Shown here: positions 7,391-61,218 of the stretch, piece after piece | How positions within the stretch are numbered: the stretch's first letter is position 1 | Layout of the letters: each line of letters opens with the position of its first letter | Assembly (NCBI GenBank): GCA_028534125.1 | Contig: CM052816.1 | Span: 7,380,001-7,444,000 of the forward strand | Origin: Lama glama | Lineage: Eukaryota | Length of the DNA: 64,000 bases | Direction: 5' to 3' | The notes under the pieces: model-generated | The model's database searches: none | What the model was told of the DNA's origin: nothing | Seen by the model: only the letters and a program-made list of their open reading frames with translations | Translations under genes and position numbers: made by a program

Positions 7391-7490
7391 GGTGGACAGA
7401 CCTTAGGGCTACCTCACAATGGTAACAAAGGACCTGGGAGAGCTTACAAGAGAGAAGTGCCTCCTTTTGCCACTGAAAAGACACATGTTG
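7391..7490 (+). pseudogene. SLC36 pseudogene, exon 2 remnant
   Basis: ctgtag| then QTLGLPHNGNKGPG (cf. SLC36A1 QTLIHLLKGNIGTG, same spacing) and CLLLPLKRHML (cf. GLPLAVKNAGIL). Donor degraded. Confidence 0.55.
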
Positions 7491-7995
7491 TGGAGCCCAA
7501 AGGGAGGTGCTGAGGCTAGCTCTGCCACGTGCTAGCCAGTTCCTTACATCTGGGCTTCTCGTCAATGAAATTAATAGGGGAGGAAGTTCATCTCCAAAAT
7601 CTTTCAGCGCCATGAGTTCTTCTTTCCCTACTTCAGCCACATTCCTCCCTCCAAAGATGACTGGATGGGCCCTCAGTCAGCCACAAAGTTATTATATATC
7701 ACACTTTAGAATTTCTTTGAGATGGTCTGCTGCAACCCATTCATTTTATATATGAGAAACTGAGCTTCAGAGAGACAAAGGTATTTATTTGTTCAAGGTC
7801 ACACTGGGTAAAAAGTGTGAGAACCTCTGGATTCTCCTCTGACCCCTCACTTAGACCCTAAGGTTCTGTGGTCACAATTTGCCATATGAAGGTACAGAAT
7901 GGTACCTGTTTAATATGCAAATAAATTTTGTCTGAGTTTTTTCAAATGCAGTATAAGATGCCATTATGGAAAAAACATATTTAAAAATGAGTGGT

Positions 7996-8516
7996 TGTGT
8001 TAGTTTCCTATTGCTGTGTAATAAATTACCACATACTTAATGGCTTAAAATGACATACATTTATTCTCGTGCAGTTTCTGTGGGTCAGGAGTTCAGGGGG
8101 TCGTCTGCTTATAGGGGCTCACAGGCTGCAGCCAGGTGTAGGCTGGGCTGCTTTCTCACCTGGAGGCACAACTGGCAAAGAATATTCCTCCAAGCTTGCT
8201 CAGATTTTTGGCACAATTAATTTCCTTGCCATTGTAAGACTGAGGGCCCCGCCTTCTTGGTGGCTGTCAGCTCTTAGCCATGTGGGCTTCCCAACATGGT
8301 CACTTACTTCTTTAGAGCCAGCTAGACTTGGAGGTCTCTGTAGTCTGCTAGTAAAACAAAATCTATATGACATAATGTGACATTCCATCACCTTTGCCAC
8401 AATCTGTTGGCTAGAAGCAAGCACAGGTCTCATCCACACTCAAGAGCAGAGGATAAACAAGAGCATGAACACCATGAATAATAAGGGAGGTAGCATCTTA
8501 GAGTCTATCCACCACA
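7996..8516 (-). mobile_element. MLT1 (MaLR) LTR
   Basis: tgtgttagtttcctattgctgtgtaataaattaccac..gtctatccaccaca. Confidence 0.8.
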
Positions 8517-8569
8517 GTGGTGAAAATCGTAAGTGTAAAAAATATTAAAATTTCTACTCATGTCATGGC

Positions 8570-9230
8570 AAGTGATAAGAGGGCTAAGGTTTAGCCATTG
8601 GATTTGGCAACGGGGCGTTGTTGCCCTTCGCAAGAGCAGTTTCAGTGAAGTAACGAGGATGAAAGTTGGCTGAGGTAGATTCAAGAGAATGGGAAGTGAG
8701 AAACTGGAAGGAGTAAAGACAACTCTTTTAAGGACTTTTGTTATGAAGCAGAGCAGAGAGATGAGAGATTTAAGGTACTATGGTATGCTTATATGTTCAT
8801 GGGAATGATGCAGTAGAAAGGGAAAGTTTGATGATGCAAGAGAGAGGGAAGGATCATTGCAGGAGAAGGCTCTTGAGTGAGTAGATGACAACAGATGAGA
8901 TCCAGTGCACAAGACAGAGGGACTTAGAACAGGATGAGAAAGGCTCAACTATTTTCCTGGGAGAAAAGTCCTAGTATACGGATTCAGACATATGTCAGTG
9001 GGTAGATTTAGTGGCTGGAGGATAAGGAAGTTCTCTTCTGATTGCTTCTATTTTCTCAATGAAGTACGAACAACGTCATCAGCTGAAAGTGGAAAGGGAA
9101 GAGTGGTAGACATCTGAATTGAGAGAAGACATAGGGAACAGTCCCCTTGAAGAGTGGAAGAGTAGCATAAATAAGACAAGGAGAGGATTTGCCAGGTGGT
9201 GCTAGGACCCACCTGAGGTTGTGTGCCAGC
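8570..9230 (-). mobile_element. LINE-2 fragment
   Basis: ccattggatttggcaac..agagcagtttcagtgaag. Confidence 0.65.
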
Positions 9231-59239: not shown

Positions 59240-59310
59240 CCACCAAATAAAAACAAAGAGTTTATCCACCACCAAATAAAAACAAAGAGTTTATCCACCA
59301 CCAAATAAAA
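59240..59310. repeat. 29-bp tandem repeat (about 2.4 copies) in the ERV leader
   Basis: ccaccaaataaaaacaaagagtttatcca twice plus a partial copy. Confidence 0.9.
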
Positions 59311-60459
59311 GTTAGGGTCATCAGCCAATAAAGTGAAATCCAATACCAAAGAGGCTCACCTAAATTTCGTCTGGACTCACCAAGGAGCAGACAGGCACAA
59401 GGGGCTGCTGTTAGTATCAAGATTCTGGATCCTCAATGAGCTCAGACAAAGGAGAAAAGTCTGCTCTGGATCCCTTCATAGTCACCTGAATTGTCAACTG
59501 AAAGAAAATTGCACAACATAAAACTTGTGAGTTAAGTTTTATTTGGGGAACTTACTGAGGACTATAGCCCAGGAGACAGCCTCAGATACCTCTGAGGAAG
59601 TGCTCCGAAGAGGTAAGGGTGGAACCAGGATATATGAGTTTTTTGCTGGGAAAAAATACAAACAAACATCAAAAGACCACTACTAATCACAAGGAACACA
59701 TATCTCAAGTTAAAAGTTGTAGTGCTTTTATTTGTATGGGAAGGTACAAGAATTTGGGTTCATTGAAGGTATTCCTTAGATAAGCATCTTAACTACCTAG
59801 GGCCAGTATCCAAAGCACAGAATTCCCCTCAGGGCGCACTGTCAGTATCAGTCGGCAACTGACTTGATCGGCTTGAGGTTGTAGAAAGGGAATGACAGGC
59901 ACTACTCTTTGTTTACCAGAATGACAGACAACATCTTTTGTTTTCAAATGCCAGTCTCTAAAATTCATTTGGAAATTTGATTGATGCATGAAACCCCAAA
60001 GTCTTGAACCACATAAGCTATGTACATGGGAGTGTTTTTTGTTTTTGTTTTTTAATTTTGGAGTTTCTACTATGCATTAGGCATAGTAGGGGAACAGGAT
60101 AACTAAACTACAGCTTCAGAGGCTTGAATTCAAATCAGAGCTCTGCCTCTAATACTAACTGGGTCACCTTAAGCGAGTGAAGTAAACTTTCTGAGCCTGG
60201 GTTTCCTCATCTATAAAGTGAGGATAATTAATAGTGCCTACCTTATGTAACACACTTAGTCTAAAGCTAGGCACAAGTGAGTTAGTATTAGAATTATTAC
60301 CTAGGCAATGGGAGAACCACAGTAAACAGCCACAGGCAATGAAAAGGTGCCTGAGGGAACAAGGATAAGGTAATAAATTTCACTCATGTATTGGTTGCAT
60401 TGTTGTTTCTGAAGTCCCTAACTTCCAGCCCAAAAGAGTACTTGTGTTCATCTCTATAG

Positions 60460-60540
60460 ATTATACCACCTCAGGCAAAGCATTCCCCAGATCTCTGCCT
60501 CGGATATCTATTAAAGAGTGGGCAAGTCCTCCTACTCCCC
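60460..60540 (+). pseudogene. SLC36 pseudogene, probable internally deleted exon 9 remnant
   Basis: ctatag|A-LYH/SGK (cf. LYQSVK), followed shortly by IP..RISIKEWASP (cf. SLC36A2 IPFAISRVSTRWALP). Confidence 0.45.
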
Positions 60541-61001
60541 AGAATACTAGAACTCAAACTCTGGCCAGTATCAGAACCACCTAGGGAACGTAGTAAAAAC
60601 AAAAAGGCCCAAATTCTTCCTACTTCAGTGAGTCTGGGTCTCTCTGTGCTTTATTATCTTCCCAGATGGTTCTGATAACACACCAACTTTCCAAACTGCT
60701 GTTAAAGAAAAAAAAAAAAAGACAAGGCTCCCTAGTTATTCTAAAGGATGATAAAAGATTATCATGATTAAAATCCCATTTGTTCCACTGTCTATGCAGA
60801 TGTCAAGCAGTTTAGGCAGTCCTTACATAAGTTGCTTGTGCCCCAAGGGAAGCTAGGCCTGTATCTCAGCATCCATTGACAATGAAAAGCGCAGGCCCTG
60901 GGGGCTTCAGTTCTTCAAAAGTCTTCTATAACCTAGTGCCTGTGTCCCAGCAAGGGGGAAAGAGGAGCAATACCTTTCCTAGGGTCACATCAGCTTCACA
61001 G

Positions 61002-61218
61002 TAGAGCCGTGGTGGAACCCAGAGCCACAGATGCTTGGGCCAGTGTTAGAAGGGCTTATCTGGAGGCTCCCACCCTGGAGGATGCCCTCCTGCCTGCGGA
61101 CAGGTGGTACAAGTTGGAAGTCTGCAGGCAGTGCCCTGCAAGTATTCGTTTACCTGATATCTGGAAAGGACCCCAGCAAAATTCTGATATTCCAGCAAAC
61201 CCTTTCCCAAAGGTTTGA
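61002..61218 (+). pseudogene. SLC36 pseudogene, probable last coding exon (exon 10) remnant
   Basis: cacag|..AVVEPR..ASVRRAYL..PTLE-(20 aa)-SI..G vs AILIPR..GSVSSSAL..PLLE-(20 aa)-SI..G. Confidence 0.5.

Follow-up and report, generated by a model that had tools for sequence, protein, structure and literature searches.

Remnants of an SLC36 gene beside SLC36A2

Does the DNA directly upstream of SLC36A2 in the llama hold the remains of a further member of the SLC36 transporter cluster? According to the consulted portion of PMC5650669, the family has four members, three of which lie within the SLC36A1/A2/A3 cluster. Other SLC36 genes are absent from the pig and cattle gene lists of the interval, and a literature search returned no mention of a fossil SLC36 paralog at this locus. 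The window analyzed here, i.e. the whole stretch of 64,000 nucleotides from Lama glama contig CM052816.1, is anchored at its end by exon 1 of the living SLC36A2. A sequence-only reading had described within it a fossil gene with exons 2 to 10 in order on the SLC36A2 strand, spanning 7391-61218.

Exon scores were compared with a null of 378 one-kb blocks made from the window sequence, reversed or shuffled. Isoform gaps supplied the family boundaries for exons 4, 7 and 9, as well as the 3′ limit of exon 6; the remaining SLC36 exon boundaries used as reference are presumed. Five remnants stand out, listed here with the living neighbour:

5515-5684 (lower coordinate approximate), minus strand: SLC36 exon 9 remnant; score 67 vs. 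null maximum 23
12377-12463, plus strand: SLC36 exon 3 remnant; score 59 vs. null maximum 19; AG and GT retained
14614-14696, plus strand: SLC36 exon 5 remnant; score 38 vs. null maximum 21; phase-1 acceptor and GT donor retained
17991-18176, plus strand: SLC36 exon 6 remnant; score 57 vs. null maximum 21; HMMER E 4.7e-4; donor lost
47479-47640, plus strand: SLC36 exon 8 remnant; score 90 vs. null maximum 20; AG and GT retained
62910-63073, plus strand: SLC36A2 coding exon 1; 100% identity to the alpaca PAT2 protein (P0001); GT donor

Exons 3, 5, 6 and 8 are colinear on the plus strand and, with scores of 38-90 against null maxima of 19-21, are as clear as had been reported. The exon 9 remnant is the window's top HMMER match (E 6.7e-6; PAT1 residues 345-370 at E 0.002); its acceptor at 5684 and phase 1 are retained, and its 3′ end is decayed. 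The exon 8 remnant matches residues 275-330 of the solved PAT1 chain (PDB 9v3t) at E 5e-12, while exon 5 is marginal in plain HMMER (E 0.99), and Pfam makes no call on the exon 8 piece (54 residues) or the exon 9 piece (27 residues). Acceptors are in the family phase in all five exons and donors are clear in three (exons 3, 5 and 8). The splice dinucleotides claimed at family boundaries are thus present as AG/GT at exons 3, 5 and 8 and as AG at exon 6, but the exon 6 donor is gone. Each clear exon is single-copy, with none duplicated in the window.

With regard to SLC36 ancestry, both PAT homology beyond chance and the family's exon boundaries and phases were found, and we consider it virtually certain that an intron-bearing SLC36 pseudogene is present at this locus. 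A processed pseudogene or retrocopy is ruled out, as the remnants lie kilobases apart and carry splice sites.

The gap from exon 6 to exon 8 measures 29 kb, and the block separating these two exons contains two olfactory-receptor pseudogenes. Elsewhere in the window, Rfam gives one tRNA-like match only, and an open frame in a CpG island has no usable match in the protein atlas and an empty PDB search.

Exons missing from the plus strand

The earlier description also placed exons 2, 4, 7, 9 and 10 on the plus strand, where all five score at chance level. The match at 7391 taken for exon 2 scores 14.6 (P about 0.14 there), falls outside the top three whole-exon matches and is outscored by another spot in 5.7-12.4 kb. 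The best exon 4 score between exons 3 and 5 is 11.6 (P 0.96), exons 7 and 9 have P values of 0.93 and 0.44, respectively, and exon 10 scores no higher than 10.4 in 60.8-61.2 kb (P about 1). Both ends of the proposed gene span are therefore chance-level matches, and the strong exon 9 lies instead on the minus strand, outside that span. What survives is a real intron-bearing SLC36 fossil beside SLC36A2, with only four exons in order on the plus strand rather than nine. Two further features are relevant here:

7391-7480, plus strand: previously proposed exon 2; short motif match at chance level, excluded from the fossil
7226-7328, minus strand: candidate exon 7 remnant, unproven; top whole-exon 7 match on both strands, donor in register

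Simulated decayed exons exceeded the null maximum, per exon, in 25 of 25 cases at d=0.15, 23-25 of 25 at d=0.25 and 15-24 of 25 at d=0.35. Since simulated exons of like decay were always detected, the readable sequence most likely lacks exons 2, 4, 7 and 10, as well as a plus-strand exon 9, rather than containing faded versions of them. The window contains three N blocks of 500 bases each (1565-2064, 20048-20547 and 43245-43744), one of which could hide a missing exon. These blocks may also be scaffold gaps, which would favour a single plus-strand gene whose exon 9 was flipped by a local assembly error. However, exon 9 and the remnants of exons 3-6 lie within one N-free stretch, and flipping that stretch leaves the order broken; such an error, or the intact exon 2-10 order with its five chance-level exons despite high detection power, is thus very unlikely.

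The minus-strand exon 7 candidate is matched by 1 of 504 null blocks, with about 0.5 such matches expected per 128 kb, and it scores 17 compared to 36-64 for a true exon at d=0.15. Two other matches were rejected. An exon-4-like match at 49037-49083 (40.7 vs. null 37) is gone in later models, and an exon-10-like match at 62010-61927 on the minus strand (24.5 vs. null maximum 21) spans the exon middle only, is missing in whole-exon mode and lies far under the simulated exon 10 scores.

Lesions, decay and possible past selection

Over 210 codons, the remnants carry 2 stops and 11 indels, 8 of them frameshifting. Exon 3 has an in-frame stop (12395-12397) and two frameshifts, exon 5 two indels, exon 6 a stop (18117-18119) and five indels, and exon 8 a single frameshifting deletion that leaves 162 bases vs. 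the family's 167. As a functional transporter the sequence fails: all five exons are frame-broken and a ten-exon open Aa_trans frame is absent. Production of a transporter from the pseudogene is impossible.

Neutral decay is about 0.14-0.18 per site. At 61 invariant columns it is 0.14 (0.10-0.22), and the 2 stops observed compare with 2.6 expected at a decay of 0.14 and 4.6 at 0.30. Away from indels, change was greater at variable than at invariant columns (0.26 vs. 0.12; 2dL 3.9), a weak sign of past selection on the fossil. The same contrast on all columns is not significant (2dL 1.8), and a set-based test shows little excess change, with residues falling within the family set about as neutral decay of 0.14-0.22 predicts. 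Both of the latter results would suit a dead-on-arrival duplicate that was never a working fourth gene. Had the copy been dead since the eutherian stem, however, its decay should be about 0.3 or more, while the measured upper bounds are 0.22-0.26; age estimates of this kind depend on the neutral branch lengths assumed. The fossil might equally never have worked if it were a gene-conversion mosaic of A1 and A3, as I170, D284 and L290, common to the fossil and eutherian A1, would allow. Against this, old and A3-derived states alternate over just a few codons (old at 312 and 316, derived at 313 and 318), unlike conversion tracts. Overall, we regard either origin, inactive from the start or mosaic, as unlikely.

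Phylogenetic placement

In a tree of 37 rows, the fossil is sister to the four A3 rows (91/65), with the koala PAT3-like protein as the next branch out (96/95); a site-mixture model minus the koala row gives the identical placement (83/91). The A3 sample consists of four partial laurasiatherian proteins and a degenerate mole-rat model, and marsupial PAT3-like proteins are represented by one sequence. When 47 attachment branches were tried, the A3 stem was best. All 6 branches of crown A3 (AU p<=0.007) and all 12 of crown A2 (AU p<=0.002) are rejected, and the strict A2 sites comprise 0 derived, 5 old and 3 other states. These rejections, together with the fossil's own long branch in the trees, uphold the initial view of an old tandem paralog as opposed to an A2 or A3 copy that arose recently in camelids.

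The fossil shares a fraction of 0.35 of the derived states at 54 A3-diagnostic sites. Values of 0 and 1 are both rejected (full sharing by 2dL 87), likewise at the 41 sites off indels, and the share is 0.30-0.40 in each of three fossil pieces. In 2000 simulations of pseudogenes derived from A1 or A2, the A3 signal was never reached, and simulated A1 pseudogenes returned to their source tip in 15 of 15 cases. Exons 8 and 9 by themselves have no particular placement.

Some evidence points towards A1. Exons 3 and 8 are closest to A1 proteins in plain BLASTP, a residual camel-A1 signal is present (20 sites, share 0.35, 2dL 9.5-13.8), and the AU test leaves several A1 branches unrejected, among them the camel A1 tip (p 0.106). 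The tree check on recent duplication is therefore clean for crown A2 and A3, with the A3 stem best, but not for A1 by this test. A1 placements are nevertheless at least 8 log units worse than the A3 stem, and the camel A1 tip has a likelihood weight of 0.007. Moreover, no row is more than 56% identical to the fossil (208 columns), sharing of all camel-A1 (2dL 20-30) or alpaca-A2 (2dL 91-120) states is rejected, and simulated camel-A1 pseudogenes went back to camel A1 in 5 of 5 cases. It is thus exceedingly improbable that the fossil arose when SLC36A1, A2 or A3 was duplicated recently in camelids. We conclude that the fossil is very probably an old separate lineage, and the SLC36A3 stem is its probable branch point.

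A sister position to the koala PAT3-like protein is unrejected (AU p 0.094). At 12 sites where that protein keeps the old state, the fossil shares the A3-derived state at a fraction of 0.35 (2dL 7.5), and the duplication therefore probably postdates the marsupial split. It follows that other placentals are likelier to retain intact copies than are marsupials, monotremes or sauropsids.

Searches for surviving or expressed copies

Among 321 proteins, a set skewed to A2, no intact orthologue of the fossil stood out. When the exon 8 remnant was used to search a protein database, 11 candidates came up, none of which scored, PAT1 included, so that this search was without power. A metagenome scan yielded 79 loci with best full-length matches only about 35-45% identical and no usable mammalian coding DNA, while the koala PAT3-like protein falls in generic transporter clusters only in the protein atlas. 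Separately, 14 sequencing runs contain at least half of 42-50 kb; six RNA or possibly RNA runs have shares of only 0.10-0.17 and carry no weight on expression either way.

Proposed history of the fossil

An SLC36A3 ancestor would have been tandemly duplicated on the eutherian stem, before the rodent and laurasiatherian A3 lineages diverged. The copy may for some time have encoded a working amino-acid transporter of SLC36 type, and its death would fall at about the time of the placental radiation or later; the odds somewhat favour a functional period lasting until that radiation. Originally it would have shared the strand of SLC36A1 and faced SLC36A2 head to head. A single inversion with breakpoints in 5.7-12.4 kb and 47.6-62.9 kb would then have turned exons 3-8 and left exon 9, and deletions would have taken exons 2, 4, 7 and perhaps 10, leaving what is presumably inert DNA. 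The proposed inversion is bracketed by L1-like copies in inverted orientation (11.7-12.2 and 57.0-57.5 kb); these are only 66% alike and were discounted as evidence. We lean towards a single gene plus inversion, which fits the single-copy exons and the similar A3 share in all pieces, and give roughly even chances to the whole reading, in which a lost SLC36 paralog, the sister of SLC36A3, left a non-processed pseudogene that was later altered by an inversion and deletions.

The opposite strands, which are directly observed, could also be explained by an inverted duplication that produced two back-to-back fossils, one on the plus strand (exons 3, 5, 6 and 8) and one on the minus strand (exon 9, perhaps 7), the second having subsequently lost its 5′ half. 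The exon 7 candidate lies 1.5 kb upstream of exon 9, both on the minus strand, and if it is real, one inversion is insufficient. In addition, exon 9 alone is unlinked to the other exons by the tree, and the 29-kb gap could part even further copies. Yet no exon is doubled, the A3-state fraction is similar in all pieces with overlapping decay intervals, more exon losses are required, and decay in the exon 7 candidate goes far beyond that of the clear exons. We therefore give two fossils a low, though appreciable, probability.

In the single-gene reading, the fossil suggests that early placentals had one more SLC36 member than textbooks list. It supplies a branch midway on the lineage that leads to SLC36A3, a protein of unknown function, dates the order of A3 residue changes, and shows where to seek a surviving copy. 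It is improbable, though conceivable, that a fourth working cluster gene of early placentals was lost independently in several lineages and is intact in some placentals; its survivors might then sit in Afrotheria, Xenarthra or other laurasiatherians, labelled ‘PAT1-like’ or ‘PAT3-like’. Were that so, A1-like residues where A3 changed would mark a stepping stone toward the PAT3 substrate. Without a surviving copy, the fossil is a well-supported ordinary dead duplicate, useful mainly for cluster history and camelid rearrangement.

Comparison with known systems

The CHIA paralogs lost across placentals, as presented in the consulted part of PMC5955627, resemble the fossil in leaving, within a tandem cluster, exon relics that carry stops and frameshifts as well as splice sites. 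They differ from it in that the fossil's exons lie on two strands and no intact orthologue of it stood out among the 321 proteins.

SLC36A1 and the marsupial and monotreme PAT1-like proteins have the top raw identity to the fossil (56%) and the top summed BLASTP scores, because A1 evolves slowly. In contrast, the A3 stem is 8-15 log-likelihood units better, and A1-derived simulations lack the A3 signal. SLC36A3 (PAT3), testis-specific and of unknown function in the consulted part of PMC5650669, is the nearest living lineage, with about 35% of diagnostic residues in common and the same cluster and exon boundaries. Unlike SLC36A3, the fossil is broken, lies across SLC36A2 from it and retains the old state at many sites, e.g. 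E279 and K281, which are K and Q in the A3 of pig, bat and mole-rat. Finally, the koala PAT3-like protein (P0133, XP_020819984.1) is the next branch out. Most states common to koala and A3 occur in the fossil (9 sites, 0.85), whereas koala-specific residues do not (share 0.05), and A3 and the fossil may both have this protein as their marsupial co-orthologue.

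Remnants of five SLC36 exons

Both strands of the window were scored with a frameshift-aware profile in which codons decay neutrally and splice sites earn a bonus, and the null was taken from 378 one-kilobase blocks of the window, reversed or locally shuffled. The fossil was compared with the SLC36 family at the protein level throughout. Isoform gaps in family proteins gave the limits of exons 4, 7 and 9 and the point where exon 6 ends; the remaining limits and all phases follow the gene structure of the family and are consistent with the splice sites observed in the fossil. Five remnants far exceed the null maximum of 19-23:

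SLC36 exon remnants and the neighbouring gene (window positions)
5684 down to about 5515, minus: exon 9 remnant, score 67
12377-12463, plus: exon 3 remnant, score 59
14614-14696, plus: exon 5 remnant, score 38
17991-18176, plus: exon 6 remnant, score 57
47479-47640, plus: exon 8 remnant, score 90
62910-63073, plus: SLC36A2 coding exon 1, in the last kilobase of the window, 100% identical to the protein named alpaca PAT2

Exons 9, 8 and 6 are also found by plain HMMER (E 7e-6 to 1e-3; best E in reversed sequence, 0.54), exon 5 only at E 0.99, and exon 3, which is broken up by frameshifts, is undetected by it. The exon 8 and 9 remnants match the solved PAT1 chain. Each of the five exons has an AG acceptor in the phase typical of the family. 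Donors are intact in exons 3, 5 and 8, lost in exon 6 and unclear in exon 9. Over the 210 aligned codons there are 2 stops and 11 indels; 8 of the indels break the reading frame.

The sequence-only reading had proposed a fossil paralog with exons 2-10 in order on the plus strand, from 7391 to 61218. The fossil is real and consists of five exons spread over both strands, not of nine colinear ones. On the plus strand, exons 3, 5, 6 and 8 are borne out (scores 38-90); the matches claimed for exons 2, 4, 7, 9 and 10 reach scores of 10-18, no more than chance would give in their intervals (P 0.14-1.0), and both ends of the proposed interval rest on such matches. Simulated exons are recovered in 25/25 cases per exon at 0.15 substitutions per site, the decay of the clear exons, in 23-25/25 at 0.25 and in 15-24/25 at 0.35. 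Thus, exons 2, 4, 7, 10 and a plus-strand exon 9 have probably been deleted, or lie outside the window or within one of its three N blocks of 500 bases each. A weak candidate for the whole of exon 7 beside exon 9 on the minus strand (7328-7226) is suggestive: it is equalled by 1 of 504 null blocks, is not significant window-wide, and is far more decayed than the five clear exons.

Probable placement beside SLC36A3

A 37-row tree, with isoform-specific and frameshifted stretches of partial proteins masked, places the joined remnants as the sister group of four SLC36A3 rows (91/65), followed by a koala PAT3-like protein, XP_020819984.1 (96/95). A site-mixture model on 21 rows, omitting SLC36A4, fish, hagfish, frog, shrew SLC36A2, koala and four further rows, again makes the fossil sister to SLC36A3 (83/91). 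On a fixed backbone the SLC36A3 stem is the best of 47 attachment branches and all crown-SLC36A3 and crown-SLC36A2 branches are rejected; the AU test does not reject several SLC36A1 branches (camel tip, p 0.106), nor the branch of the koala protein (p 0.094). On their own, exons 8 and 9 give no informative placement, except that exon 8 rejects the pig SLC36A3 tip.

At 54 sites where SLC36A3 differs from the old SLC36A1-like state, the fossil shares 0.35 of the derived residues; a share of 0 is rejected, and so is one of 1, an outcome that also holds for the 41 sites lying clear of indels. In simulations that leave alignment bias out of account, 0 of 2000 neutral SLC36A1 or SLC36A2 pseudogenes attain this share, and 15 of 15 SLC36A1 pseudogenes are placed back on their source. 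Counting against the SLC36A3 stem, the share is likewise 0.35 at 20 camel-SLC36A1 sites (2dL 9.5-13.8), a signal that rests on few residues and behind which homoplasy or some conversion from SLC36A1 is possible.

For an origin on the SLC36A3 stem, two sets of sites bear on its date. The fossil shares 0.55 of the 23 states common to mole-rat and laurasiatherian SLC36A3, and since a share of 1.0 is rejected, its split is older than their ancestor. Koala retains the old state at 12 sites, and there the fossil's share is 0.35 (2dL 7.5), so the split from SLC36A3 probably came after the marsupials had diverged. The koala protein is fast-evolving and groups with SLC36A3 and the fossil, which places the beginning of the SLC36A3 line earlier than the divergence of marsupials and placentals. 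Among the 120 family matches listed there is no marsupial SLC36A2. One unnamed assembled protein is SLC36A1-like over its first two-thirds and SLC36A2-like from about exon 9 on; it is an assembly chimera, or else the product of trans-splicing or conversion.

Time of inactivation

Invariant columns keep 46 of 61 residues, giving 0.14 substitutions per site (0.10-0.22); the 60 variable columns whose ancestral state is certain yield 0.22, and both jointly 0.18, estimates biased downward by the use of best-preserved exons and optimised alignments. With 2.6 stops expected at 0.14 and 4.6 at 0.30, the 2 stops found agree better with the lower value. Neutral branch lengths are about 0.11-0.12 from alpaca to the artiodactyl ancestor and about 0.18-0.19 to the boreoeutherian ancestor. 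Decay of about 0.3 or more would be expected of a copy inactivated as early as the mid eutherian stem. Taken together, these values indicate that the gene was probably still alive at about the time of the placental radiation, or even afterwards. Direct signs of selection in the past are weak, with 2dL 3.9 for columns clear of indels and 1.8 for all columns, and a set-based test gives little excess change.

Arrangement and the intervening block

As assembled, the order from left to right is exon 9 (minus), then exons 3, 5, 6 and 8 (plus), with exon 9 and exons 3-6 in one N-free stretch. SLC36A1 presumably lies left of the window on the minus strand, judging by gene order. The fossil gene would first have stood on the strand of SLC36A1, and one inversion would then have turned exons 3-8 round. 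A single inversion explains the two strands and fits both the lack of any doubled exon and the similar SLC36A3 share of the three pieces (0.40, 0.30 and 0.40). Two back-to-back fossils are also possible, and a genuine exon 7 on the minus strand would make them more plausible.

Exons 6 and 8 are separated by two olfactory-receptor pseudogenes, LTR-like repeats and a CpG island; a tRNA-like element lies a short way beyond exon 3.

Other features (window positions)
12630-12701, plus: tRNA-like Rfam match, related copy at 53311-53397; probably a tRNA-derived SINE
23842-24775, minus: olfactory-receptor gene (Pfam 7tm_4), complete except for one frameshift after the third helix; a young pseudogene
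25019-25535, 31816-32231 and 37996-38507: LTR-like repeat, three copies 77-86% alike, the middle one aligning in two parts, the third inverted
36600-37400: CpG island, with a GC content as high as 0.80 and a CpG observed/expected ratio as high as 0.88
43745-44280, minus: second olfactory-receptor piece (Pfam 7tm_4), open for about 175 codons

The second receptor piece shares an N-free stretch with exon 8 and SLC36A2; one of its ends is truncated by what seems to be an inserted repeat, the other by an N block. Within 20548-45000 an AT-rich composition gives way to a GC-rich one at about 32 kb. No gene was identified at the CpG island, where a 126-codon minus-strand frame has no Pfam, protein atlas or PDB match; the island is possibly a promoter brought in with the receptors. 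Because the available portions of the pig and cattle gene lists (PMC6487013, PMC13570792, PMC6304683) name no olfactory receptor at this place, the receptor and CpG-island block may be an insertion from another locus.

Intact copies and described clusters

No intact orthologue stood out when 321 fetched proteins, mostly SLC36A2 and drawn in part from the best 120 of 1403 and the best 150 of 6102 matches, were compared with the remnants. We consider it unlikely that one survives in some placental mammal; if it did, the fossil would be of clearly greater interest.

The open full-text literature searched describes neither a fourth cluster gene nor an SLC36 pseudogene. It covers parts of PMC6487013, PMC5650669, PMC13570792, PMC6304683, PMC9210794 and PMC5174741, and of bioRxiv 10.64898/2026.07.24.740446, whose supplements may hold SLC36 duplication or loss calls; a supplement of PMC10195156 gave 0 matches. 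The pig gene list, as far as available, runs FAT2, SLC36A1, SLC36A2, SLC36A3, GM2A (PMC6487013); beside these, the llama locus holds a real fossil paralog, apparently not described before and probably the sister of SLC36A3.
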